A stretch of DNA of 13,390 bases from the NCBI GenBank assembly GCA_964617845.1, contig CAZUAR010000003.1, positions 56,518 to 69,907 on the forward strand, given 5' to 3'. Positions within the stretch are counted from its first letter, which is position 1, and each line of letters begins with the position of its first letter. The notes beneath the pieces were generated by a model. The model had not been told where the DNA came from. It saw only the letters and a list, made by a program, of their open reading frames with translations, and did not search any database. The translations under genes and the position numbers were made by a program. This document shows, in pieces, positions 1,990 to 13,390 of this stretch. Origin of the DNA: an uncultured Kofleriaceae bacterium (GTDB lineage Bacteria; Myxococcota_A; Polyangia; Haliangiales; Haliangiaceae).

Positions 1990-3285
1990 ATGCTGCGCGT
2001 TCTCGCGATCACGAAGATCTTCCCCAACGCCGCCGAGCCGCTGTCTGCCCCGTTCAATCGGCAGCAGTTCGCAGCGCTCGCGCGGCACTGCTCCCTCGAG
2101 GTGATGGCCACGATCCCGTGGTTCCCGGGTGCGAGCCTCGTCCACGGCTCGAGCGCGGGAAAGCTCGTCGGTGTTCCCGGCGAGGAGACGATCGACGGCA
2201 TCACCGTCACCCATCCGCGCACGCTCTTCGTGCCGCGCCTCGCCCACGCGACGTGGGGGCCGCTGTACGCGGCGTCGATCGCGCGTGCGGTGATGCGCTA
2301 TCGGGGACGCGTCGACGTCGTGCTCGGCTCGTGGGCATACCCCGACGGGTTCGCGGCCGTGATCGCGGCGCGCATGCTCGGTGTGCCGTGCGTCGTGAAG
2401 CTGCACGGGAGCGACATCAACCAGATCGCGAAGCTGCCGGGTCCTCGCAAGCTGCTCGGGTGGGCGTTGCCGAGGGCCGCGCGCGTCGTCGCGGTGAGCC
2501 GCGCGCTCGCCGACGAGGTCGCGACGCTCGGCGTGCCGCGCGACAAGATCGCGATCGTCATGAACGGCGTCGATGCGTCGCTGTTCCATCCGCGCGATCG
2601 CGCGGGTGCGCGCGTGGAGCTCGGGCTCGACGAGAGGCCGCTCGTCCTGTACGTCGGCAACCTCAAGGCGGACAAGGGCGTCCTCGACCTCGCGAAGGCG
2701 TGGGAGCGCGTCGCCGCGCAGATGCCCGATGCGCGGCTCGCGATCGTCGGCGGTGGTCCCGCCAAGGACGAGCTCGCGGCCGCCGTCGAGCGGTTCGGCG
2801 GCAAGCTCGGCGAAGGTCGAGCGCGCTGTGCGAAGGATGATCGCGTGCTGCTCCTCGGCCCGCGGCCGCTCGCGGAGGTTCCGCTGTGGATGGCCGCGGC
2901 CGATGTCGTCACGCTGCCGAGCCACGCGGAGGGCACGCCCAACGTCGTGCTCGAGGCGCTCGCGTCGGGTAGGCGCGTGGTCGCTACCCGTGTCGGCGGC
3001 ATCCCGGATCTCATCACGCGAGGCGAGCTCGGCGCGCTGGTACCGCCGCGCGATCCCGACGCACTCGCCCGTGCGCTCGCGCTCGCGCTGCGCACACCGT
3101 ACATCCCCGCCACGGTCGCTGCTCTCGGCGCACGGGGTGGTTGGGACGCAAGTGCCTCCGCCCTGCACCAGGTGCTGCTTGGCGCGGCGAGTGCTTCGCA
3201 ACCGGGGACGTCATGGAGCGCCCCTCCCTCTCCCAGCTCGGAGACCGCTGGTACTCGTCCGAGGAGCGCATCACCGCCGCGATGA
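1990..3285 (+). CDS. Glycosyltransferase family 4 (GT-B; Glyco_trans_4 N-domain plus Glycos_transf_1 C-domain)
   Basis: Seen in sequence. N-terminus MLRVLAITKIFPNAAEP is typical of GT4. The C-domain has the EX7E-type region (PSHAEGTPNVVLEALASGRRVVATRVGGIP). ATG at 1990 lies 6 nt after the STAS stop. The last ~25 aa are low-complexity and overlap the next gene, so the exact C-terminus is uncertain. Confidence 0.85.
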   Translation: MLRVLAITKIFPNAAEPLSAPFNRQQFAALARHCSLEVMATIPWFPGASLVHGSSAGKLVGVPGEETIDGITVTHPRTLFVPRLAHATWGPLYAASIARAVMRYRGRVDVVLGSWAYPDGFAAVIAARMLGVPCVVKLHGSDINQIAKLPGPRKLLGWALPRAARVVAVSRALADEVATLGVPRDKIAIVMNGVDASLFHPRDRAGARVELGLDERPLVLYVGNLKADKGVLDLAKAWERVAAQMPDARLAIVGGGPAKDELAAAVERFGGKLGEGRARCAKDDRVLLLGPRPLAEVPLWMAAADVVTLPSHAEGTPNVVLEALASGRRVVATRVGGIPDLITRGELGALVPPRDPDALARALALALRTPYIPATVAALGARGGWDASASALHQVLLGAASASQPGTSWSAPPSPSSETAGTRPRSASPPR

Positions 3286-4328
3286 TCACGGAGCTGCAAC
3301 GCGTGCGCAGGCGCGCGGCGGCTCGGCCGTTCTTGACGCTCTTTCTCGCGGCACTCCTCACCTCGGCGCTCGCGATCGTGATCGTGACCAAGCACCGCAA
3401 GCTCGAGGCCGAGGTCGTCCTCGCGCTCACCGAGGGCACGCTCTCGAGCGACCACTCCGGTCTCGCGGCGCAGGAGCTGCGCGAATACGTCTCGTCGGTC
3501 CTGTTGTCCGACAAGAACGTCGCCGAGGTGATCGTGGATCAGGACCTCTATCGCATCCGCGAGCGCATGGGCATGGCCTACGCCATCACCGAGCTGCGGG
3601 AGCAACTCGAGGTCGACGTGTGGAAGAACACGTTCGTCTACTACCGCGACTCCGAGTCCAACGCGCGCAAGTCCGCGCGCATCGGCCTCACGGTGATCGA
3701 CACCGACCCCGACAAGGCATATGGCATCGCGCGCGCACTGGCTGACATCATGATCCGCACGCACGACGCCGAGCGCTTGAAGCTCACGAGTGCGCTCGCC
3801 GCACAAGTGCAGCTGATGCGCGAGACGGTCGAGTCGGAGCTGGAGAAGCTCGCCCACCGGATCAGCGAGAAGCAGGCGGCGATCGGCATCGCGTACAAGG
3901 ACGGCAAGAACGGCGTCGCGGCGGCGCTGATGGTCGACCTCGCGGATCTCGACGCGCGCCACAAGGACCTCGAGACTCAGCTCTCGCAGATCGCCACGAG
4001 CCGCGACGCCGTCGCCGACCAGATCTCCGCGGCCGGCCTCGACATCACGCTCGAGGTCGTCGCCGAGAAGCGACCGGATCGCCCTGTCACGTCGACGTTC
4101 GCGCTCGTGCTCGTCATGTGCGTCGTCGCGACAGGCGCGCTGATCGCGTCGGCGATGGTCGTCAGCACGTTCGATCCGCGCGTGCATCACGCCGACGACG
4201 TCGCCCGGCTCGGGCTTCCTGTCCTCGGTCACGTTCCCGCTTTCACCGGCGATCGCGTCGGTTCGTTACGCAAGCGCGGCGCACGCCGCAGTAGCTCAGG
4301 GGCAAGACTATGGCACTCGCACCGATAA
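3213..4328 (+). CDS. Polysaccharide co-polymerase-like inner-membrane protein (PCP/Wzz-like; two TM helices flanking a coiled-coil periplasmic domain), paralogue 1
   Basis: Seen in sequence. TM1 is FLTLFLAALLTSALAIVIVT. A roughly 270-aa hydrophilic, helical, Ala/Glu/Leu-rich domain follows. TM2 is FALVLVMCVVATGALIASAMVV. A C-terminal cytoplasmic tail carries DDVARLGLPVLGHVP, which resembles the BY-kinase-activating tail of PCP-2b proteins such as CapA and YwqC. ATG at 3213; a TTG at 3141 is an unlikely alternative. Family assignment rests on topology and the tail motif only. Confidence 0.55.
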   Translation: MERPSLSQLGDRWYSSEERITAAMITELQRVRRRAAARPFLTLFLAALLTSALAIVIVTKHRKLEAEVVLALTEGTLSSDHSGLAAQELREYVSSVLLSDKNVAEVIVDQDLYRIRERMGMAYAITELREQLEVDVWKNTFVYYRDSESNARKSARIGLTVIDTDPDKAYGIARALADIMIRTHDAERLKLTSALAAQVQLMRETVESELEKLAHRISEKQAAIGIAYKDGKNGVAAALMVDLADLDARHKDLETQLSQIATSRDAVADQISAAGLDITLEVVAEKRPDRPVTSTFALVLVMCVVATGALIASAMVVSTFDPRVHHADDVARLGLPVLGHVPAFTGDRVGSLRKRGARRSSSGARLWHSHR

Positions 4329-5818
4329 CTCCTCGCGACAAGCTGCAACGCATCACCGACCTCGCTCGCAAGACGGCGCGGTACTGGTGGATGATCGCTC
4401 TGTTCGCCCTCGTCGGCGGCGCGCTCTCGCTCGCGTTCGCGGTGTTCAAGCCGAAGAACTACCAGTCGTGGTCCACGCTGTTCTATCAGGAGCGAATCCA
4501 GTCGAGCCTGATGTCGCCGAACCGCGAGGAGATGGTCCAGCGCAACATCGGCGATCGCTACCGCGAGCTGTTGCTCGCGCGCTCGCAGCTGATGCAGATC
4601 GTGACCGACCCGGCGCTCGATCCGTTTCCCGACGAGGACGATGTCGAGGTGAAGATCGACGAGCTGCGCAAGGTCATCAAGTTCGAAGCGCGTGGCGCGA
4701 ACGCCTTCCGTATCAACTTCCGCGACACGGATCCGGCGCGCGCGAAGCGAGTGACCGAGAAGCTGACCTCGATGCTGCAGGCCAAGGACGAGGAGCTCCG
4801 CAACGATCAGGCGACGCGCACGGTGAACTTCGCGACCACCCAGAAGGAGGCGGCGGCCAAGGAGCTCGCGAAGAGCGAACAGGCCCTCGCCACCTTCCTC
4901 GCCGCGCACCCCGAGTTCGCCGAGGAGACGAGCCAGGGCAACTCCGAGGGCGCGTCGATCCGCGCCATCCGCGAGCCCAAGACCAAGAAGACCGGTAACA
5001 GCCGCCTCTACGCGCTCGAGCGCCAGCGCCAGCGCATCCAGGCGCGCCTCGACGCGAGCCCCGACGGTCCTCCGGTGCGCATCATCGCGCCGCCGAGCCC
5101 CGAGCGCGTCGCCGCCGAGGCCGCGGCCAACGAGGCACAGCGCCAGCTCACCGCGGCGCAGCGCGAGCTCGACGGTGCACTCAGCCGGTACACGGAGAAG
5201 CACCCCGAGGTGATCAAGGCGCAGGCGAACGTCGCGGCCGCGCAACAGCGCTACCGCACCGCGCAGGCCGCGGTGCCGCCGCTCGTCGAGACCGCCGTCG
5301 CCCCGACGTCCAAGCAGGACCGCGAGAAGCTCGAGAAGCAGCTGGCGCAGCTCGAGGAGCAGATCGCGAACGCGCAGTCGTCCGGCGACAAGAAGGACGC
5401 GTCGCAGACCGACAAGACGACGAACTGGGTCGTGAAGCTCGAGACGGAGCACGCGATCCTTCGCCGCGAGGTCTCCGAGCAACGCGAGCGCGTCGGCTCG
5501 CTCGCCGCGTCGGTGTTCCGCGCGCAGATCGACGCGAGCCAGAAGCTCGCCGAGCAGGGCGGCCGGCTCTCCGTCGTCGATCCGGCGTTCAAGCCCGTGA
5601 AGCCCACCGGCCCCGGCAAGACGATCTTTCTCCTCGCCGGCATGATGCTGTTCCTGACGCTCGGCACGGGGCTCGCGCTCGGCCTCGCGATGATCGACGA
5701 CCGCATCTACCACCGCATCGACCTCGACAACCTCGGTATCGGGGTTCTCGCCGTGATTCCGCCCGCGCAGTCCCTCAAGGGACTGAAGCCGGCGCCGAAG
5801 AAGGAGCAGCGCAAGTGA
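4310..5818 (+). CDS. Polysaccharide co-polymerase, PCP-2b type (Wzz N-terminal domain, long coiled coil, C-terminal TM and basic cytoplasmic tail; no fused kinase domain), paralogue 2
   Basis: Seen in sequence. Wzz-type N-terminus [37 protein letters not shown] (the P-x-Y-x-S-x-S-like pattern after TM1). Extended Q/A/E-rich coiled-coil segment. C-terminal [26 protein letters not shown] followed by [15 protein letters not shown] and a Lys-rich tail. ATG at 4310 overlaps the upstream gene by 19 nt. Confidence 0.8.
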
Positions 5819-6636
5819 CCACGTCGCGACCCAGCCTGACGATGACCGCGATCGGTCTCGGCAACCACAACCCGCGCACCACGCTCACGCGTGGCTCGAT
5901 GTCGGCCGTCGATCCACGCGCCACCGTGGCACTCGCTCCGACCGAGGCGCGTCCCCCCAGCGCGGCCGCGTGCGAGGTGCAGGTGATGCAGCACCAGCTG
6001 CCACGCCACGCACGCTCCGACCGGCGCCTCGCCGTCGCCCTCGCGCCCGACTCGGCGCGCGCCGCCGCGTTCCGCGTGCTGCGCCACCACCTGCTCGAGC
6101 TCGGCAAGCCGCAGTGCGTCGTCGTGACCAGCCCGCAACGCGGCGACGGCAAGACGACGACCGCGATCAACCTCGCGTGCGCACTGTCCGAGTGCGGCCG
6201 TGCGAGGGTGCTCCTCGTCGAAGCGCACCTGCGCCGCCCGCAGCTCGCCGGCGTGTTCGAGTTCGTGCCGCCTCGCTGCTTCGCGGATCAGCTGCTCCTG
6301 CATCGCAAGGATCCGCTGTCGCCGTGGACGCTCGTCGAGATCCCCGAGCTGCACCTGCACGTCGGCGCGATCAACCCGAAGTTCGAGCGCGGCCAGCTCC
6401 TCGACGGCCCCGCGTTCTCCATCGCGATGGAGCGCCTGCGCGTCGCCGGCTACGACCACATCGTCATCGACGCGCCGCCCGTCCTCGGCTCCGCCGACGT
6501 GAACCTGATGGCCGACGCGGCCGACACGGTGCTGCTCGCTCTCCGCGCGCGCCGCTCGACCGCGCGCGACCTCCGCGCGGCGATCGATCAGATCGGCGAG
6601 CGCAAGGTCGGCGGCACGGTCCTGGTCGAGGAGTAG
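5815..6636 (+). CDS. BY-kinase-family P-loop ATPase (CapB/Wze-like) lacking the C-terminal tyrosine cluster
   Basis: Seen in sequence. N-terminal RK helix [11 protein letters not shown]. Walker [21 protein letters not shown] at about 6127-6159. Walker A' is [11 protein letters not shown] at about 6208-6240, where the canonical DxD has become E-A-H. Walker B is HIVIDAPPV. The protein ends at ...[14 protein letters not shown] immediately after the last beta-strand, with no Tyr-rich tail. GTG start at 5815 overlaps the upstream stop (GTGA); the start codon is uncertain, and in-frame ATGs lie downstream. Confidence 0.8.
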
Positions 6637-6652
6637 CGAGCGGCCCGAGTCC

Positions 6653-8107
6653 CTAGCGGCGACAGGTCGCGATCTCGATCAGCTCGCGCCGGCTCCGCTC
6701 CCACACGCGCTCGTCGGTCGGCCAACCAGCGACGGGCATCGTGCGAGCGACGACCATCGCGGTCGCCATCGGATCGCACGCCTTCGCGAGCTCGAGCAGC
6801 TCGCGATCCTGCTGCCCGCGCCGCAGGGCCGCGAGTCGAAGCGTCGGACGGCATCCGCCGTCGGCCGGTAGCGCGAGGACGCCGTCGAGGTTGCCGTGAT
6901 CCTCGCCGTCGTCGAAGCTGACGGGGTCGCGGAGGTCGAGCGCGCGGCCCGGCAGCGGCGCGCCCTTGCGGTTGTGGCGGTCGTGCCAGTACAGCGCGTC
7001 CCACACGTACCACTGCGGGATGCCATCGCGATGCATGAGCCAGCCCCATGTCCTCGGACCTGGGGTCTCGGCGTCGAGGATCATCGCGCCCGAGTACGGA
7101 GGAAGTCCGTTGTAGGCCCACGCGCCGCTCCGGGGCGCGGGTCGGAGCTGGATGAATTGATCGACGAGCCCGAGCCACTCCGGTCTGGGCGGTGCAGTGA
7201 CCGCGAAGCGGAACGTGTTCGGTCCACCGCCCGCGGCGCGGATCACCGTGCCGAGCGCGACGACGTCCTGGATGCGCTTCGCGGTCCGGGGCTCGTCGAT
7301 CGGAATCGCGAACGGCACGTGTCCCGTGCCCCTCGTGGCGGCGATCCAGGCACGCACCTCGTCGCCGGCCTTCGCCGGATCGGCGGAGATGACCACCGGC
7401 ACGTCGCGGATGCCCGCGAAGTCGGCCTTGCGGCTGGGCCACCAGTCGATGTGGATGTCGGGGGTGAGCAGCACGCCGTGATCGCGGAACATCGACATGC
7501 ACGCGCGTTCGGCGGCGCTGGGAACCGCGCGCGAGGGCATCGCGCCCTTCGAGGCCCATGCGAGCTCGCGAGGGTCTTCGTAGGCCCACACGCGCGGCGG
7601 ACGGGTCGGGATCGTGACGTCCGCGACGGCGAGCTCGACCGGGTATCGCGTGTCTCCGACGATCAGCGCGCCCTGCAAGCTCCCGATGGCCATCTCGCGT
7701 GGAACGCGAACCTCGACGTACCGCACGTGCGATGGGCTCGATGGCGATGGGCGCGGGATGAGGCCGTCCGCGTACCGCCCCTTCCCCGCGCTCGCGCCGT
7801 ACAGCCCGGGCGTCGAGGGGCGAGCGACCTCGATGGCCTCCACATCGAACACCCGCACGTCGACACCTTCGAGCTCGAAGACGATGGGCGCGTCGTTCGA
7901 TGTGACGACCTGAAGGCCGATCGTCTCGCCGCGCGCCGCGACCAGCGATAGCCGCTCGCCGTCGAACCACGGCGTGACACGCGGGAGCGGATCGCCGATC
8001 CGGTAGCGCGTCGACTCGCCGAGCACCGCGATCGATGGCCCTGGATCGGTCGCCCCGGCGGGATCGCAAGCAGCGAGCGCCAGGGCACAGGCGAGGACGC
8101 GCGACAT
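6653..8107 (-). CDS. Lipoprotein of unknown function (484 aa), candidate polysaccharide-active hydrolase by genomic context only
   Basis: Seen in sequence. ATG at 8107-8105. Lipobox MSRVLACALALAAC|D (LAAC, with +2 Asp). Natural, Trp/Tyr-rich composition (for example WAYNGLPPYSGAMILDAETPGPRTWGWLMHRDGIPQWYVWDALYWHD). The overlapping frames are Arg-rich artefacts. The ORF-track frame upstream of this ATG (to 8344) looks non-coding. I do not recognise a family. Confidence 0.65.
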   Translation of the reverse strand: MSRVLACALALAACDPAGATDPGPSIAVLGESTRYRIGDPLPRVTPWFDGERLSLVAARGETIGLQVVTSNDAPIVFELEGVDVRVFDVEAIEVARPSTPGLYGASAGKGRYADGLIPRPSPSSPSHVRYVEVRVPREMAIGSLQGALIVGDTRYPVELAVADVTIPTRPPRVWAYEDPRELAWASKGAMPSRAVPSAAERACMSMFRDHGVLLTPDIHIDWWPSRKADFAGIRDVPVVISADPAKAGDEVRAWIAATRGTGHVPFAIPIDEPRTAKRIQDVVALGTVIRAAGGGPNTFRFAVTAPPRPEWLGLVDQFIQLRPAPRSGAWAYNGLPPYSGAMILDAETPGPRTWGWLMHRDGIPQWYVWDALYWHDRHNRKGAPLPGRALDLRDPVSFDDGEDHGNLDGVLALPADGGCRPTLRLAALRRGQQDRELLELAKACDPMATAMVVARTMPVAGWPTDERVWERSRRELIEIATCRR

Positions 8108-8162
8108 CGTCCCAGGCGCAGCAAAGCCCGAGCCGGCCCGCAAATCGCAGAGCCACACGCCG

Positions 8163-9470
8163 ATGGCAACGCCAACCCGCGTAGAGACTCGGATCTCGCC
8201 GACGGAGGGCGATCCGTCGAGCGAGCGAGCGCAGAGCGACGCGCGCGCGGGCGCACGTGTGGCCGCGCAGCACGCGAGGGTCGTCGCTCCCGTCGAATCG
8301 CTGCCGATCATCGCGTTCGCGAAGGACTGGCACGAGGATCCCACGTCGAACCATCACGTGCTGCGCGAGCTCGCGAAGACGCGGCGCGTGCTGTGGCTCA
8401 ACTCGCTCGCGACGAGGACGCCGAGCCTCGCGAGCGGTCGCGACCTCGGCAAGATCAAGCGCAAGCTCGTCGAGTTCTCGAAGGGTCCGGTGAACGTCGA
8501 GAACGACCTGTGGGTGTTCTCGCCGCTCGTGCTTCCGCTGCCGCACGAGGCGTGGGCGCGATCGATCAACAAGCAGGTGCTACGCGCGACGATCCGTGGC
8601 CTGCGCTGGAAGCTCGGGATCGACAGGTTCCAGCTGTGGACGTTCCTCCCGAACAGCGCGGACTACGTCGGGATGCTCGGCGAGGAGTCGAGCGTCTACT
8701 ACTGCGTCGACGAGTGGTCGCTGTTCTCGTATCTGGATCGCGAGCAGACGGTCGCGGCCGAGAAGGCGCTGCTCGGCAAGGTCGATGCGGTGTTCGCGAT
8801 CAACCACGCGCTGGCAGAGGCGAAGCGAGGCGTGAACGCGTCGACGTTCGTGAGCCCGCACGGCGTGGATCACGCCCTGTTCGCGAGCGCGCTCGACGAG
8901 GCGACCGTGGTGCCGGCAGACATCGCCGCGATCTCGGGCCCGCGGATCGGGTTCTACGGGACGATCCGCGACTGGGTCGACCTCGAGCTCGTCGCCCATG
9001 TCGCGAAGGCGCGACCCGCGTGGTCGATCGTGTTGCTCGGCCAGGTGCTGTGCGATGCGAGTGCGATCGCCGGGCTGCCGAACGTTCACCTCCTCGGGCA
9101 GAAGCGGCACGACGAGCTGCCCGCGTACTGCAAGGCGTTCGACGTCGGCATCATTCCGTACCGGATCGATGACCGGATGACGTTCGTCAATCCGCTGAAG
9201 CTGCGCGAGTACCTGTCGGCGGGGTTGCCGGTCGTGTCGACGCCGGTGCCCGAGGTCGCGCGGTACCGCGAGTGGTGCCGGATCGCGGCGACGCCACCGG
9301 AGTTCGTCGAGGCGATCGAAGCGGCGCTCGCCGAGTGCAAACCGGCGACGCGCGCCGCGCGAAGCGCCGCGATGAAGAACGAGACGTGGTCGGCGCGCGT
9401 CGCCGACGTGATGCGAACTGTCGACGAGATCAGCCAGAGCAAACAGACCAAGGGAATGAAGGGAACATGA
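8163..9470 (+). CDS. Glycosyltransferase, GT-B fold (GT4/group-1 like)
   Basis: Seen in sequence. C-terminal nucleotide-sugar-binding region GIIPYRIDDRMTFVNPLKLREYLSAGLPVVSTPVPEV and the overall GT-B pattern. Start is uncertain: ATG at 8163 leaves only 55 bp to the divergent lipoprotein gene, a GTG at 8259 is the alternative, and the first ~40 aa are low-complexity. Stop TGA at 9468-9470. Confidence 0.75.
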   Translation: MATPTRVETRISPTEGDPSSERAQSDARAGARVAAQHARVVAPVESLPIIAFAKDWHEDPTSNHHVLRELAKTRRVLWLNSLATRTPSLASGRDLGKIKRKLVEFSKGPVNVENDLWVFSPLVLPLPHEAWARSINKQVLRATIRGLRWKLGIDRFQLWTFLPNSADYVGMLGEESSVYYCVDEWSLFSYLDREQTVAAEKALLGKVDAVFAINHALAEAKRGVNASTFVSPHGVDHALFASALDEATVVPADIAAISGPRIGFYGTIRDWVDLELVAHVAKARPAWSIVLLGQVLCDASAIAGLPNVHLLGQKRHDELPAYCKAFDVGIIPYRIDDRMTFVNPLKLREYLSAGLPVVSTPVPEVARYREWCRIAATPPEFVEAIEAALAECKPATRAARSAAMKNETWSARVADVMRTVDEISQSKQTKGMKGT

Positions 9471-11551
9471 GCACCAAGAAGCTGCGCGCCGGCATGGTCG
9501 GCGCAGGAAACATCTGCGAGTTCCACGTCGCTGCCATCCAGAAGCTGGCGAGCGCGCCCCAGAGCGAGGTCGAGCTGATCGGCGTCGCAGACCTCGACGC
9601 GGAGCGTGCCGCGGCGAACGCCGAGAAGTGGGGCACGCGGGCGTATGCGGATCTGGACGCGCTCGTCGCGGCGGGCGCCAACGTGATCCACGTGCTCACG
9701 CCACCCTCGTCGCACGCGGCGATCGCGCGCGCGGCGCTCGAGCGTAGATGCCACGTGCTCGTCGAGAAGCCGATCACCGAGGACGCCGAAGAAGCACACG
9801 CACTCGGCGAGCTGGCGGCGAAGAAGGGGCTGACGATCAGCTGCAACCACTCGCTGCTGTTCGACCCGCAGATCGTGCGTGCGCTCGACATGGTCAAGGC
9901 TGGCAAGCTCGGCGAGATCGTCGGCGTCGACATCCTGCGCGGAAGCGAGTACCCGCCGTACGAGGGCGGGCCGCTGCCGCCGTGGTACCGCGACGCGGGC
10001 TATCCGTTCCGCGACATCGGCGTGCACTGCCTCTATCTGATCCAGGAGCTGCTCGGGCCGATCACCAACGTCGACGCGAAGTGGCGCTCGCTCGGCGGCG
10101 ATCCGAACCTCGCGTTCGACGAGTGGCGCGCGCTCGTCGCGTGCAAGCGCGGCCTCGGGCAGCTGCAGATCACCTACAACACGAAGCCGATGCAGTCGCA
10201 GCTGATCATCCACGGCACCAAGGGCGTGCTGCGCGTCGATCTGTTCGCGATGTTCCACGGCAAGCGCGCGTCGACGCCGCTGCCCAAGGCGGCCGAGCGC
10301 TTGATCAACGCGTTCACCGATTCGCTGCAGCCGCTCGTCGACGTTCCGGTGAACGTCGTGAAGTTCGTGCGCAAGCAGGTGCAGTCGTATCAGGGCCTGC
10401 GCGACCTCGTCGCCGACTTCTACGCGCGGCTGCTCGGCAACAAGGAGCCGGCGGTCTCCGTCGACGACGCGGCCAACGTCGTCGCGTGGGTCGAGAAGGT
10501 CGCGCGCGCGGCCGACGCGGATCACGCGCGGAACCTGTCGCGGTTCCAGACGTCGGATCGGATCCCGTTCGTCGTGACCGGTGCGTCGGGGTCGCTGGGC
10601 AAGGCGGTCGTGAACCGCTTGCTCGCCGACGGACATCGCGTGCGCGTGTTCCAGCGCAAGATCCCCGCGCAGGCGCGCGAGGGCGTCGAGTACGTGTTCG
10701 GCAACCTCGGCGATCCGAAGGCGGTCGACAAGGCGATCCGCGGCGCCGAGGTCGTCATCCATTGCGGCGCGGCGATGAAGGGCGGCTGGCCGGAGCACAA
10801 GGGCGGCACCGTCGTCGGCACGCAGAACGTGATCGATGCGTGCAAGAAGCACGAGGTGCGGCAGCTCGTGCACATCTCGTCGATGTCGGTCGTCGATTGG
10901 GCCGGCAGCGCCGGGACCACCGTCGGCGAAGGCGCGGCGCTCGAGCCTCGCCCCGACGAGCGCGGCGCGTACACCCGCGCGAAGCTCGAGGCCGAGAAGC
11001 TCGTGCGCGAGGCAGCGGCGGGCGGCTTCCCCGCGGTGATCCTGCGCCCCGGGCAGATCTTCGGCGGCGGGATCCCGCTGATCAACGGCGCGGTCGCGCG
11101 CAACGCCGGCGGACGCTGGCTCGTCCTGGGCGACGGAACGATCGAGCTACCGTTGATCTATATCGACGATGTCGTCGACGCGATCATGCGCTCGGTGCAG
11201 CTGCGTCTCGTCAGCGGCGAGGTGATCCAGCTGATCGATCCCGAGAAGCTCACGCAGGCCGACGTGCTCGCGCTCGCCGGCGAGAACAAGCCGCAGCTCA
11301 AGGTGCCGCGCTCCGTCGTGTTCGCGCTCGGCAAGCTCAGCGAGCTGCCGCTCGGTGCGCTCGGCAAGCCGAGCCCGATCGCGCTGTACCGCCTGCAGTC
11401 GGCCCTCTCGCGCATGCACTACGGCAGCGACGTCGCCAAGAACGTCCTCGGCTGGGCGCCGCGCGTCGGTGTTCGCGAGGGCATTCGGCGCGTGACCGGG
11501 GCGGCGCCACGCGGCAGCGCGACACCCCCACTGCGCGTCGCGGCGCCTTGA
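9467..11551 (+). CDS. Fusion protein: N-terminal Gfo/Idh/MocA-family NAD(P)-dependent oxidoreductase plus C-terminal extended-SDR NAD-dependent epimerase/dehydratase-like domain (694 aa); putative nucleotide-sugar modifying enzyme
   Basis: Seen in sequence. ATG at 9467 overlaps the upstream stop (ATGA). Gfo/Idh/MocA Rossmann region MVGAGNICEFHVAAI and LVEKP at 9491 onward. A second Rossmann motif VVTGASGSLGKAVVNRLLADGHRVRVF at about 10566-10640, with the SDR catalytic pattern S (HISSMS) and YTRAK (YxxxK). The upstream 65 codons of the ORF-track frame are Arg-rich and non-coding-like. Confidence 0.8.
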   Translation: MSTKKLRAGMVGAGNICEFHVAAIQKLASAPQSEVELIGVADLDAERAAANAEKWGTRAYADLDALVAAGANVIHVLTPPSSHAAIARAALERRCHVLVEKPITEDAEEAHALGELAAKKGLTISCNHSLLFDPQIVRALDMVKAGKLGEIVGVDILRGSEYPPYEGGPLPPWYRDAGYPFRDIGVHCLYLIQELLGPITNVDAKWRSLGGDPNLAFDEWRALVACKRGLGQLQITYNTKPMQSQLIIHGTKGVLRVDLFAMFHGKRASTPLPKAAERLINAFTDSLQPLVDVPVNVVKFVRKQVQSYQGLRDLVADFYARLLGNKEPAVSVDDAANVVAWVEKVARAADADHARNLSRFQTSDRIPFVVTGASGSLGKAVVNRLLADGHRVRVFQRKIPAQAREGVEYVFGNLGDPKAVDKAIRGAEVVIHCGAAMKGGWPEHKGGTVVGTQNVIDACKKHEVRQLVHISSMSVVDWAGSAGTTVGEGAALEPRPDERGAYTRAKLEAEKLVREAAAGGFPAVILRPGQIFGGGIPLINGAVARNAGGRWLVLGDGTIELPLIYIDDVVDAIMRSVQLRLVSGEVIQLIDPEKLTQADVLALAGENKPQLKVPRSVVFALGKLSELPLGALGKPSPIALYRLQSALSRMHYGSDVAKNVLGWAPRVGVREGIRRVTGAAPRGSATPPLRVAAP

Positions 11552-12612
11552 TGCGCGCGGCGATGCGTGACGAGGTCCTCGCGTCGCGCGTGCTGCGCGG
11601 CGCCGTGATCCTCGCCGCGCTCGCATGCGCGGCGGCCGCGCGGGCCGACACGATCGTCACCGTGCAGCTGTCGCCGGACGGCCAGCAGCTCGCGCAGCAG
11701 CTCGGCGTCACGCCCGAGCAGCTCGCCGCGCAGGTGACGCGCGCGGTCGACGACGCGTACCAGACGGCGAACATCGAGGAGTTCCTCGAGTCGTTCGTCG
11801 ACGCGACGTCGTTCTCGTCGCGCGGCATCGGTGTCGACTACGCCTCGCAGCCGACGGGCTTCATCGCGGGCTTCGCGGTCAACCTCGCCGCCGCGGGCGA
11901 CCAGGAGCTGCGCGCCGACGAGCGCCCGACGGCGGGCCTCGCCGCGAACGTCTCGGTGCTCGTCGGGATGAACCTCGCCGAGTGGAAGCTGTCGCGTTGG
12001 ACGATCTTCGCGAACGGGTTCTATCGCAACGCGGAGCTCGAGCGCCTCGACGGCACGATCCTCAGCGCGGGCGCTCACGTGCAGTACACGATCATCCCCG
12101 CGCCCGCGGACGGCGGCACCGGGACGTTCGTGCGCTGGATCGGCCTCGCGGCGACGAGCGGCCTCGAGCTCACGCGCTGGTCGCTCGGCACGGGCTCCGA
12201 CACGCTGTCCACGGACTTCGACGTCGGCAGCGGCAACAACACCGCGCACGTCGACGTCGACTCGACAGGACAGCTCGATCTGCGCTCGCAGGCGATCACG
12301 GTGCCGCTCGAAGCGACCACCGGCCTGCGCGTCATGTGGCTCGCGACGCTCTACGCCGGCGTCGGTGTCGACTTCACGCTCGGCAACGCCGACGTCACCG
12401 CGAACATGAACGGCATCGCGCGCGCCGACGACGGCCGCGAGCTCGGCACGGTCGCCATCACCGGCGAGGGCTACGCGAACGGATCGCCCGCGACGCTGCG
12501 CGCGCTCGTCGGGCTGCAGCTGAACCTGTGGAAGCTGAAGCTGTTCTCGCAGCTCAACGCATCGCAGTCGCCCGCGGTGAGCGTCGCGTTCGGTCTCAAG
12601 TTCGTGCAGTAG
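11551..12612 (+). CDS. Secreted beta-rich protein, putative outer-membrane beta-barrel (candidate polysaccharide-secretion porin by context)
   Basis: Seen in sequence. ATG at 11551 overlaps the upstream TGA by 1 nt (TGATG); a second in-frame ATG sits at 11563. Signal peptide RVLRGAVILAALACAAAARA|DT. Many short amphipathic strands rich in W/Y/F (for example RWTIFANGFY, FVRWIGLAATSGLELTRWSLG, LRVMWLATLYAGVGVDFTLG). The C-terminus is AVSVAFGLKFVQ, with alternating hydrophobics and F at -3. Only the 3' third of the 954-aa ORF-track frame is real; the upstream part is an alternate frame of the fusion gene. Confidence 0.5.
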   Translation: MRAAMRDEVLASRVLRGAVILAALACAAAARADTIVTVQLSPDGQQLAQQLGVTPEQLAAQVTRAVDDAYQTANIEEFLESFVDATSFSSRGIGVDYASQPTGFIAGFAVNLAAAGDQELRADERPTAGLAANVSVLVGMNLAEWKLSRWTIFANGFYRNAELERLDGTILSAGAHVQYTIIPAPADGGTGTFVRWIGLAATSGLELTRWSLGTGSDTLSTDFDVGSGNNTAHVDVDSTGQLDLRSQAITVPLEATTGLRVMWLATLYAGVGVDFTLGNADVTANMNGIARADDGRELGTVAITGEGYANGSPATLRALVGLQLNLWKLKLFSQLNASQSPAVSVAFGLKFVQ

Positions 12613-13390
12613 GCTCGGCGAGCCCCGCGGCGACGAGGATCGCGCGCGCCACGCGGGCACCGTCGACGGCCGCCGACACGATGCCGCCCGCGTAGCCCGC
12701 GCCCTCCGCGCACGGATACAGCCCCGCGATGTCCGGCGACACGAGCCGCTCGGGATCGCGAGGCACGCGCACCGGCGAGCTCGTTCGCGACTCCACGCCG
12801 ACGAGGACCGCCTCCTCCGTCAGGTAGCCGCGCATCTGCTTGTCGAAGTGCACGAGCGCTTCGCGCAGCCGCGCCGCGAGCGGGACACCGATCGTGTCGA
12901 GCACCTCGCCGACATCGGTGGCGAACAGCCCGGGCTGATAGCTCGTGCCGGGCACCGTCGACGACGCCTTGCCGCGCACGAAGTCGGTCGCCCTCGTCGC
13001 CGGCGCGCGCAGCTCGCCACCGCCCGCGCTCGCCGCCGCGCGCTCGAGCTTCGCCTGCAGCTCTACGCCGCCCATCGGGCGCGCGAGGCCCAGGCGATCG
13101 AGATCCGCGAGCTCCACCGCCACGACCAGCCCCGAGTTCGCGTACGGCGAATCGCGCCGCGACAGGCTCATGCCGTTCACCACCACGCCGTCCGCTTCCG
13201 TCGACGCCGGCACGATCCAGCCGCCGGGACACATGCAGAACGAGAACGCCCCGCGCCCATCGCTCGGCGTGAACGCCAGCCGATACGGCGCCGCCGGCAG
13301 CTTCGGATGCCCGGCCACGCGCCCGTACTGGATGCGATCGATCAGCGGCTGCGGATGCTCGATGCGCACGCCCATCGCGAACGGCTTTGC
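12596..13390 (-). CDS. FAD-dependent oxidoreductase-like protein (C-terminal portion only; the 5' end lies beyond the window)
   Basis: Seen in sequence. The frame is open to the window end: AKPFA precedes the first in-window Met. Conserved-looking segments include CMCPGGWIVPASTEADGVVVNGMSLSRRDSPYANSGLVVAV and GLYPCAEGAGYAGGIVSAAVDGARVA, which recall uncharacterised FAD-dependent dehydrogenases (COG2509-like). That assignment is from memory, not a search. It overlaps the convergent upstream gene by 17 nt. Confidence 0.5.
   Translation of the reverse strand, partial: AKPFAMGVRIEHPQPLIDRIQYGRVAGHPKLPAAPYRLAFTPSDGRGAFSFCMCPGGWIVPASTEADGVVVNGMSLSRRDSPYANSGLVVAVELADLDRLGLARPMGGVELQAKLERAAASAGGGELRAPATRATDFVRGKASSTVPGTSYQPGLFATDVGEVLDTIGVPLAARLREALVHFDKQMRGYLTEEAVLVGVESRTSSPVRVPRDPERLVSPDIAGLYPCAEGAGYAGGIVSAAVDGARVARAILVAAGLAEPTART

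Follow-up and report, generated by a model that had tools for sequence, protein, structure and literature searches.

In the current model, Wzx/Wzy-dependent export of capsule and exopolysaccharide depends on the kinase domain of PCP-2 polysaccharide co-polymerases (PCPs) passing through cycles of tyrosine phosphorylation. In the BYKdb/isBYK definition a bacterial tyrosine (BY) kinase carries a Walker A motif GxxxxGK[ST], a Walker A' motif hhhhDxDxR, a Walker B motif hhhhDxxP and, at its C-terminus, a cluster of tyrosines that serve as autophosphorylation sites, and the three Walker motifs are invariant in 796 BY-kinases, a set chosen by an algorithm that requires those very motifs (PMC4007543). 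HfsB, EcpK and PslE have made it clear that some export machines manage without tyrosine phosphorylation. A class of BY pseudokinases, or phosphorylation-independent PCP-2 systems, was proposed in 2025, with EcpK and HfsB acting by direct binding to PCP-2 tails (PMC12004946), and was extended structurally by PslE in 2026 (PMC13434223). Because these three have lost the whole nucleotide site, they cannot reveal whether the ATP site has a role beyond tyrosine phosphorylation. Here we analyze BYKL, our name for a tail-less BY-kinase (BYK)-like P-loop protein of 273 aa, translated from the open reading frame (ORF) at 5815 to 6636 (+) of a 13,390-nucleotide stretch of DNA from an uncultured Kofleriaceae bacterium (assembly GCA_964617845.1, contig CAZUAR010000003.1; the whole stretch is called the window). 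Residue numbers refer to this protein.

The BYKL family looks like a natural separation of function, in which the residues that handle phosphate and Mg have been kept and the tyrosine substrate and its proposed activating Asp are gone. As such it would permit a direct test of whether PCP-2 proteins can work on nucleotide binding and nothing else. The reading that we favour, and to which we assign a probability of roughly 0.6, is that BYKL would be a nucleotide-binding, tyrosine-phosphorylation-independent cytoplasmic partner of a split PCP-2, formed by the product of the adjoining gene (PCP2) and possibly by that of the gene before it (PCP1). Polysaccharide export machines of this family probably run without the usual tyrosine-phosphorylation switch. 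A tail-less BYK-like protein will in itself not surprise specialists; the clade, which is large and conserved and has dropped the tyrosine chemistry but not the nucleotide site, offers a clean way to ask what the ATP site does by itself.

Fold, C-terminus and nucleotide site of BYKL

A first-pass annotation, made from the letters of the window without database searches, had called BYKL a BY-kinase homologue, and this is borne out by sequence and by predicted structure. A phmmer search against all PDB sequences gave VpsO (6.9e-11), CapAB (1.9e-10) and BceF (5.6e-10), followed by Etk and Wzc. The AlphaFold2 model, built on an alignment of 52 sequences, has a mean pLDDT (predicted confidence) of 83.6, rising above 90 in the domain; residues 1 to 47 are predicted to be disordered, the folded domain runs from about 55 to 271, and strands and helices follow in the expected order with the strand 265-271 as the final element. 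When this model was compared with the PDB using Foldseek, the best 50 matches were all BYK domains (CapA1B1/CapAB, Wzc, Etk, BceF and VpsO) with E values around 1e-11 and template modelling scores on the target reaching 0.76-0.80. The comparison with CapB, Wzc and Etk that had been called for puts BYK domains on top in both searches. The GTG start codon of BYKL is supported by an AAGGAG Shine-Dalgarno sequence 8 nt upstream, by its overlap with the stop codon of PCP2 as GTGA, and by an N-terminal TT(K/S)RP sequence that is conserved among the orthologues.

BYKL ends with V271-E-E and a stop codon (6625 to 6636, +) directly after the last core β-strand, and there is no tyrosine tail. The family model TIGR03018 is matched up to position 206 of 207, which falls at residue 270 of the 273 in BYKL; members of TIGR03018 have a tyrosine-rich stretch right after the modelled region, and this stretch is absent from BYKL. 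In the family profile the last strand aligns with LGVVL of CapAB, at residue 251 of the 271 in that chain, and the match to Wzc extends as far as residue 688; BYKL stops three residues past the LGVVL equivalent. The tyrosine cluster of Wzc starts at Y705. BYKL therefore closes level with its core fold and falls some 9-10 residues short of the point where the cluster would begin. The only tyrosine in the protein is Y213, just ahead of Walker B, where CapB, VpsO and BceF also have a tyrosine; the final 60 residues contain none. From an alignment of the motif we take Q143 to be the counterpart of the internal regulatory tyrosine Y569 of Wzc. The first-pass annotation was therefore correct that there is no tyrosine cluster, with Y213 standing alone and nothing further downstream, and that the stop codon falls where kinases of the CapB/Wzc/Etk type begin their tyrosine tail.

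Walker A (G110-D-G-K113-T114-T115; 6142 to 6159, +) is an intact P-loop and Walker B (I216-V-I-D219-A-P-P; 6460 to 6480, +) is likewise canonical, so the two motifs reported earlier as GDGKTT and VIDAPP stand as read. Walker A' (L133-L-V-E136-A-H138-L-R140-R-P142; 6211 to 6240, +) is not canonical. Residues 133-142 align column for column in the phmmer output with LLIDCDLRKP of VpsO, LIVDGDMRKP of CapB and LLIDADMRRG of BceF, and it is clear from this match that the D-x-D pair truly is E-x-H in BYKL, as the earlier description of a D-x-D replaced by E-A-H had it. The replaced residues matter in the described enzymes. In CapB, D77 and D79 of Walker A' hold Mg waters together with D157 of Walker B, and the D-x-D pair is labelled catalytic (PMC2422856). 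For the second Asp of the pair a role in recognising the substrate tyrosine and in driving the chemistry has been put forward, the D81A/D83A exchange abolishes kinase activity in YwqD, and D569N reduces it in Wzc of A. baumannii (review, PMC9800525).

The oligomerisation helix α2 has also been altered. Its motif, A84-A-F-R87-V-L-R90 (6064 to 6084, +), aligns with S-E-K-F-R-G-I-R of CapB and reads A84-x2-R87-x2-R90, with Ala in place of the Glu of the canonical EX2RX2R, which BYKL accordingly lacks. The "RK helix" of the first-pass annotation is thus present in BYKL, and it is this oligomerisation helix, with the Glu exchanged for an invariant Ala. Among the four features that define a BY-kinase, BYKL has Walker A and Walker B and lacks the canonical Walker A' and the tyrosine cluster. 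Failing two of the four, it should not, as far as the translated protein can tell, be called a tyrosine kinase.

Conservation across the family

Two sets of relatives were used to see how general these features are. For the close set we took the 120 top-scoring homologues in the database; they are 59-89% identical and come without exception from metagenomes or metagenome-assembled genomes (MAGs). The distant set was taken from a search of 1.84 billion cluster representatives, in which at least 217 clusters (50% identity) matched at E≤1e-30, and it comprises those 149 of the representatives listed that do not belong to the close set (37-74% identity).

All 120 close homologues read LLVE-[TA]-[HN] at Walker A', with an E-x-H pair in 101 and E-x-N in 19; Walker A (with K113 and T114), E136 and D219 are invariant, and so are A84, R87 and R90 of the α2 helix. 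Every one of them ends within four residues of the same position, and none has a tyrosine in the tail. In the distant set the Walker A' pair is E-x-N in 112 members, D-x-N in 11, E-x-H in nine, E-x-D in five, D-x-H in four and D-x-D in a single one. Across both sets, 261 of the 269 proteins have His or Asn where the second Walker A' Asp would stand. The nucleotide-site residues are retained here as well (K113 in 134/149, Thr or Ser at 114 in 146/149, D219 in 145/149), and 144 of the 149 end no more than 10 residues past the last strand. Position 84 is Ala in 112 of these and Asp in 25. From the pair counts in the two sets, E-x-H is the variant that Kofleriaceae have within a broader E-x-N clade.

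When one genome per species was scanned, at least 108 relatives were found, and the 80 retained are nearly all from MAGs of Kofleriaceae, Haliangiales or Myxococcales; uncultured members of the same three groups also supply the closest genomes, and the named matches of the profile search are labelled Polyangia, Kofleriaceae, Myxococcales or "Deltaproteobacteria". The family is thus carried, in split and in fused forms, by at least 108 species-level genomes of Polyangia/Kofleriaceae. Judging from these counts, the tail-less E-x-H/N form is a family trait and not the quirk of one gene, and it prevails in a large family of uncultured myxobacteria. The survey of orthologues that had been suggested for the tail-less form therefore gives a uniform answer, with the same C-terminus in 120/120 close and 144/149 distant homologues. 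What the first-pass annotation overlooked was this family-wide distribution, and that a class of kinase-dead BYK-like proteins without a tail has already been recognised (HfsB; EcpK in 2025; PslE in 2026). No description of the E-x-N/H clade was found in the searchable literature, whose coverage does not extend to the catalogue of non-canonical PCP-2 proteins by Cuthbertson et al. 2009, which may mention the type.

Several residues outside the Walker motifs are also invariant in the close set, namely C127, C155, W171, H60, H91, H92, H163, H182 and H215. C155 and W171 also recur in over 90% of the distant family, and both lie in a family-specific motif, PPxCFxxQL..HR..P..PW, that follows Walker A'. 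These residues could form a metal or redox site, or a surface for a partner.

In public databases, ten listed members of the family carry the names "CpsD/CapB family tyrosine-protein kinase", "protein-tyrosine kinase", "XrtA-associated tyrosine autokinase", "Mrp family chromosome partitioning ATPase" or "P-loop NTPase". The MinD/ParA/Mrp identity (a JGI label) was rejected: the signature Lys of KGGxGK[ST] is Q108 in BYKL and variable in the family, and BYK domains outscore the MinD/ParA structures and models by 3-15 orders of magnitude. Since two of the four BY-kinase features fail and the MinD/ParA signature lysine is missing, both the kinase names and the Mrp name are probably wrong for this family.

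PCP partners and the putative role of BYKL

The gene ending in the BYKL start codon encodes PCP2 (4310 to 5818, +), a polysaccharide co-polymerase of 502 aa that has no kinase domain and matches TIGR03007 (4.5e-41) and, weakly, Wzz and GNVR. Ahead of it lies PCP1 (3210 to 4328, +; start codon uncertain), a shorter PCP-like protein with two transmembrane (TM) segments and a coiled-coil periplasmic part, which has no Pfam match and matches the C-terminal part of TIGR03007 weakly (1.8e-9). Its second TM segment (TM2) and juxtamembrane element resemble those of PCP2 (E 1e-4). Past TM2, PCP2 has the cytoplasmic element IDDRLYRRxDLDxLGIxVLAVIPP and then a variable basic tail. The cytoplasmic tail of PCP1 is strikingly conserved in the aligned loci (L005-L084) as FDSRVHDTDDVxRLGLPVLGHVPGFxGDxVGSL..RG...RVPSFLRWRSxR, or in brief FDxRVHxxDDVxRLGLPVLGHVP...GDxVGSL...RWRSxR, and a juxtamembrane element D..LG..VL..(I/V)P is conserved in both tails. 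Juxtamembrane PCP regions of this kind are docking or activating segments in EcpK/EpsV, HfsB/HfsA and CapA/CapB.

Both PCP1 and PCP2 precede the BYKL gene in every one of the 68 related loci that have 3 kb or more of sequence upstream. A PCP1-like gene also precedes fused and distant forms of BYKL, and for this reason we regard the two-PCP arrangement as belonging to the system. It is worth a separate remark that one kinase-like subunit here faces two tandem PCP-like genes, in 68/68 loci.

The closest tie between BYKL and a PCP comes from natural gene fusions. About a dozen PCP-BYKL fusions of 675-825 aa, all of the tail-less E-x-N type, were recorded, and natural fusions of 700-825 aa are collinear with PCP2 followed by BYKL in the window. 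They run from TM2 through a DD-x-h-Y/h-..D-h-E-R-L-..-V-L element, a low-complexity linker, a short strand and the A-x2-R-x2-R helix to Walker A; the short strand is VQVMQH in BYKL and the linker corresponds to its disordered N-terminus. The linker, which is long, joins the juxtamembrane element to the kinase-like domain, and it is exactly here that split and fused forms break. Because of these collinear fusions we take PCP2 and BYKL to be one functional unit, laid out in the same way as Wzc and as CapA plus CapB.

Collectively, these features lead us to suggest that BYKL is a BY-kinase descendant that would no longer act as a tyrosine autokinase. It would dock on the cytoplasmic juxtamembrane PCP tails and help to set their oligomeric or active state, and in this manner control PCP assembly. 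BYKL would bind Mg-nucleotide, whose state would serve as a switch as in its MinD/ParA-type relatives. Binding is most likely kept, since the P-loop Lys and Thr, the Walker A' Glu and the Walker B Asp are all strongly selected. The second Walker A' Asp appears to have become His or Asn in step with the loss of the whole tyrosine tail, which resembles a coherent co-loss of substrate and substrate-handling residue, because the second position is Asn/His and the tyrosines are gone, and the first position is still acidic. With that Asp replaced and the tail absent, phosphotransfer to tyrosine would be lost, and hydrolysis of the nucleotide is probably slow or absent, since the interchange of His and Asn argues against a catalytic base. 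BYKL very probably cannot run the canonical cycle of tail autophosphorylation, as the tyrosine cluster and the Walker A' Asp pair are both missing. The first-pass annotation had drawn the same conclusion, and its wording of "an ATPase or pseudokinase scaffold" was the right kind of reading.

Four points weigh against this proposal. The lost Glu of EX2RX2R suggests that the octamer or ring interface may differ from that of Wzc and CapB. CapB contacts adenine and ribose through N211 and R212 (PMC2422856). By ungapped extension past the aligned LGVVL, the equivalents in BYKL are V271 and E272, positions that are variable across the family; base recognition must then differ from that of CapB, and binding of the base may be weak or of another kind. 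His138 could in principle serve as a general base, against which its free exchange with Asn speaks. Finally, Walker motifs can persist for structural reasons.

An alternative is that BYKL is a pure scaffold of the EcpK/HfsB/PslE type, which only binds and stabilises a PCP and has no role for a nucleotide. The genomic logic is that of EcpK/EpsV and HfsB/HfsA, the tyrosine tail is missing, the catalytic motif is altered and the adenine contacts of CapB are not conserved, all of which would suit a scaffold. The described scaffolds have, however, given up the site itself: EcpK is without the three Walker motifs, PslE without the catalytic Lys and HfsB without catalytic residues. In the BYKL family none of the 120 close homologues departs from K113, T114 and D219, about 90% or more of the 149 distant ones retain each of them, and the first Walker A' residue stays acidic. 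Such conservation is not easily accounted for unless Mg-nucleotide binding is under selection, and we therefore consider a scaffold with no nucleotide role unlikely.

Genomic context and comparison with described systems

The window (about 65-73% G+C) covers a polysaccharide biosynthesis locus. An initiating phosphoglycosyl transferase (PGT; 321 to 1055, -; Pfam Bac_transf 4e-49) is divergent from an operon that starts with an RsbW/SpoIIAB-like serine kinase (1211 to 1678, +; Pfam HATPase_c_2 2.2e-20; NCBIfam RsbW 4e-9, below the cut-off) and a 101-aa STAS protein resembling anti-sigma-factor antagonists (1678 to 1983, +; Pfam STAS 1.8e-16; TIGR00377 above the cut-off). The STAS start overlaps the stop of the RsbW-like gene as TGATG, and the protein carries the D-S-S-G motif with a phosphorylatable serine (LIDSSGV). 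A GT4-family glycosyltransferase follows (1990 to 3285, +; Pfam Glyco_trans_1_4 6.5e-33 and Glyco_transf_4), and then PCP1, PCP2 and BYKL. Orthologues of the PGT have 244 aa and are 74-95% identical in most loci (61-95% overall).

Downstream of BYKL a convergent ORF of 563 aa without a Pfam family (6653 to 8344, -) is found at 39-74% identity in many, not all, related loci, usually beside genes for a GT1 and an oxidoreductase-epimerase. In the window these are a GT1-type glycosyltransferase (8163 to 9470, +) and a GFO/IDH/MocA oxidoreductase fused to an NAD-dependent epimerase/dehydratase (694 aa; 9467 to 11551, +). The stop codon of the latter overlaps the start of a probable outer-membrane protein with a signal peptide (353 aa; 11551 to 12612, +), labelled Lsa36-like in an orthologous locus. 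The window closes with a fragment of an FAD-dependent protein (12596 to 13375, -). Genes for Wzx, Wzy and OPX are absent from the window and present in two distant loci of the family (L085 and L087).

It had been suggested in the first-pass annotation that the serine kinase/STAS pair supplies the phospho-switch that BYKL lacks, that is, that an RsbW-like kinase and STAS protein replace the tyrosine switch by partner switching on BYKL or its PCP partners. A putative partner-switching module is indeed a real and conserved part of the locus. Of the 60 Kofleriaceae-clade loci whose upstream sequence is long enough, 57 keep the block PGT/RsbW-STAS-GT4-PCP1-PCP2-BYKL, and the phosphorylatable DSSG serine is in place. 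The kinase and the STAS protein are found in the window itself and a SpoIIE phosphatase in orthologous loci only: one that is 86% identical also has HAMP-SpoIIE and PAS genes (L001, 2184-4494), and in the distant locus L087 (56% identical) RsbW-STAS-GAF/SpoIIE genes stand directly before PCP1-PCP2-BYKL, beside Wzy and OPX genes (5099-7398). Partner switching is also known to control exopolysaccharide, by SypA/SypE in Vibrio fischeri (PMC4517449) and by All4160/HenR/Alr3423 in Anabaena; the target identified in Anabaena is a glycosyltransferase with a fused STAS domain, and a kinase-like protein is implicated in neither of the two systems.

The tail-less E-x-N architecture is, however, older and wider than the module. 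Five distant loci out of six, namely L088-L090 and two with fused forms, have the same tail-less E-x-N protein and lack the pair within 8-10 kb, and it is not found nearby in three Kofleriaceae-clade loci with the same tail-less protein. The Anabaena target is a glycosyltransferase, and here the pair stands between the PGT and the GT4 gene. Candidate targets would be the PGT, the GT4, the PCP tails or BYKL, the first two being at least as likely as the others, and nothing points to contact of the pair with BYKL. The suggestion thus found no direct support, and we regard a replacement of the tyrosine switch by the RsbW/STAS pair as improbable. Much the same holds for a broader speculation, in which the E-x-N/H tail-less clade would be a distinct class of PCP-2 partner, descended from BY-kinases and returned to a MinD/ParA-like nucleotide switch. 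ATP binding and slow hydrolysis would here drive assembly and disassembly, the switch would serve two competing PCP tails, and in Kofleriaceae it would be gated by RsbW/STAS/SpoIIE serine phosphorylation in place of the tyrosine cycle; we think this a long shot.

Even less probable, in our judgement, is that BYKL is still an active kinase working in trans. Walker A and Walker B are intact, BY-kinases show relaxed substrate specificity (PMC4007543), and a candidate substrate exists in the single invariant tyrosine of the PCP2 tail (DDR-I/L-Y-R/H-R), which all 25 aligned orthologues have (Y17 of alignment A3); the substrate could also be some other pathway protein. On the other side, the Asp proposed to recognise and activate tyrosine is His or Asn in the 261 members counted above, and the natural-like D569N exchange lowers the kinase activity of A. 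baumannii Wzc (PMC9800525). A tyrosine cluster that might serve as an alternative phospho-acceptor is absent from the tails of PCP1 and PCP2 as it is from BYKL, the end of PCP1 being moderately rich in Ser and Arg but variable, and no phosphotyrosine phosphatase gene is found in the window or in a 20-kb orthologous locus.

That a frameshift, truncation or mis-assembly removed a real tyrosine tail can practically be dismissed, as the earlier concern about the 3' end is answered by the absence of TAT and TAC codons from all forward frames at 6500-6900 (260 nt past the stop; three frames translated over 6400-6900), by the convergent ORF beginning 16 nt after the stop, and by a C-terminus at the same place in the 120 close homologues from independent assemblies, in 144 of the 149 distant ones and in 80 species-level genomes with differing downstream genes.

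With the nucleotide-dependent partner of a split PCP-2 as our preferred reading, BYKL can be placed among the described systems. The best curated models for the two proteins are those of the XrtA/PEP-CTERM pair of PCP and tyrosine autokinase, TIGR03007 for PCP2 (4.5e-41) and TIGR03018 for BYKL (2.5e-22), and the latter ends where BYKL ends. Both scores are far under the curated cut-offs (140.6 against 278.85 for PCP2, 79.2 against 230.65 bits for BYKL), and membership of the XrtA-associated tyrosine autokinases was rejected on that basis. CapB/CapA of S. aureus, PtkA/TkmA and CpsD/CpsC share the fold, the split genes and the PCP gene immediately upstream. BYKL differs from them in having E-x-H/N for D-x-D and Ala for the Glu of EX2RX2R, in lacking the tyrosine cluster and the N211/R212 equivalents, and in that its locus has no cognate phosphotyrosine phosphatase gene. 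SypA/SypE and the Anabaena proteins resemble the present locus in having an RsbW-like kinase, a STAS protein and (here in orthologous loci) a SpoIIE phosphatase inside a polysaccharide locus; they differ in that no BYK-like protein is linked to them, and the module is lineage-restricted within the BYKL family.

The likeness to EcpK/EpsV of Myxococcus xanthus and HfsB/HfsA of Caulobacter crescentus is closer. These too are stand-alone BYK folds without a tyrosine tail, encoded next to a kinase-less PCP-2 gene (PMC12004946), with a helix-strand docking element on the PCP tail past TM2 and a proposed function independent of tyrosine phosphorylation, and EcpK is of Myxococcota origin like BYKL. 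They have one PCP gene against the two PCP-like genes before BYKL, and they end in an extra C-terminal helix whereas BYKL ends at its core fold. All three Walker motifs are absent from EcpK and the residues for kinase activity from HfsB, whereas BYKL keeps Walker A, Walker B and an acidic first Walker A' residue. Orthology to EcpK was rejected, as Walker A and B are present, the extra helix, which is basic in EcpK, is not, and PCP2 is not EpsV (18.2 bits against NF041864, with a cut-off of 800). PslE, a PCP-2a protein of Pseudomonas aeruginosa, has a BYK-like cytoplasmic domain without a tyrosine cluster or kinase activity (PMC13434223), and its one-chain architecture has parallels in the fused members of the BYKL family (700-825 aa). 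It lacks the catalytic Walker A Lys that the BYKL family keeps, and its C-terminal tail contacts the polymerase, in contrast to the tail-less BYKL (PMC13434223).

With a BYK fold, a lost tyrosine cluster, a replaced second Walker A' Asp and a kinase-less 502-aa PCP2 to which it is tied by gene overlap, by 68/68 synteny and by collinear fusions, BYKL has the features of a BY pseudokinase. By its predicted properties it fits this broader class alongside EcpK, HfsB and PslE, but unlike those three it keeps its P-loop.

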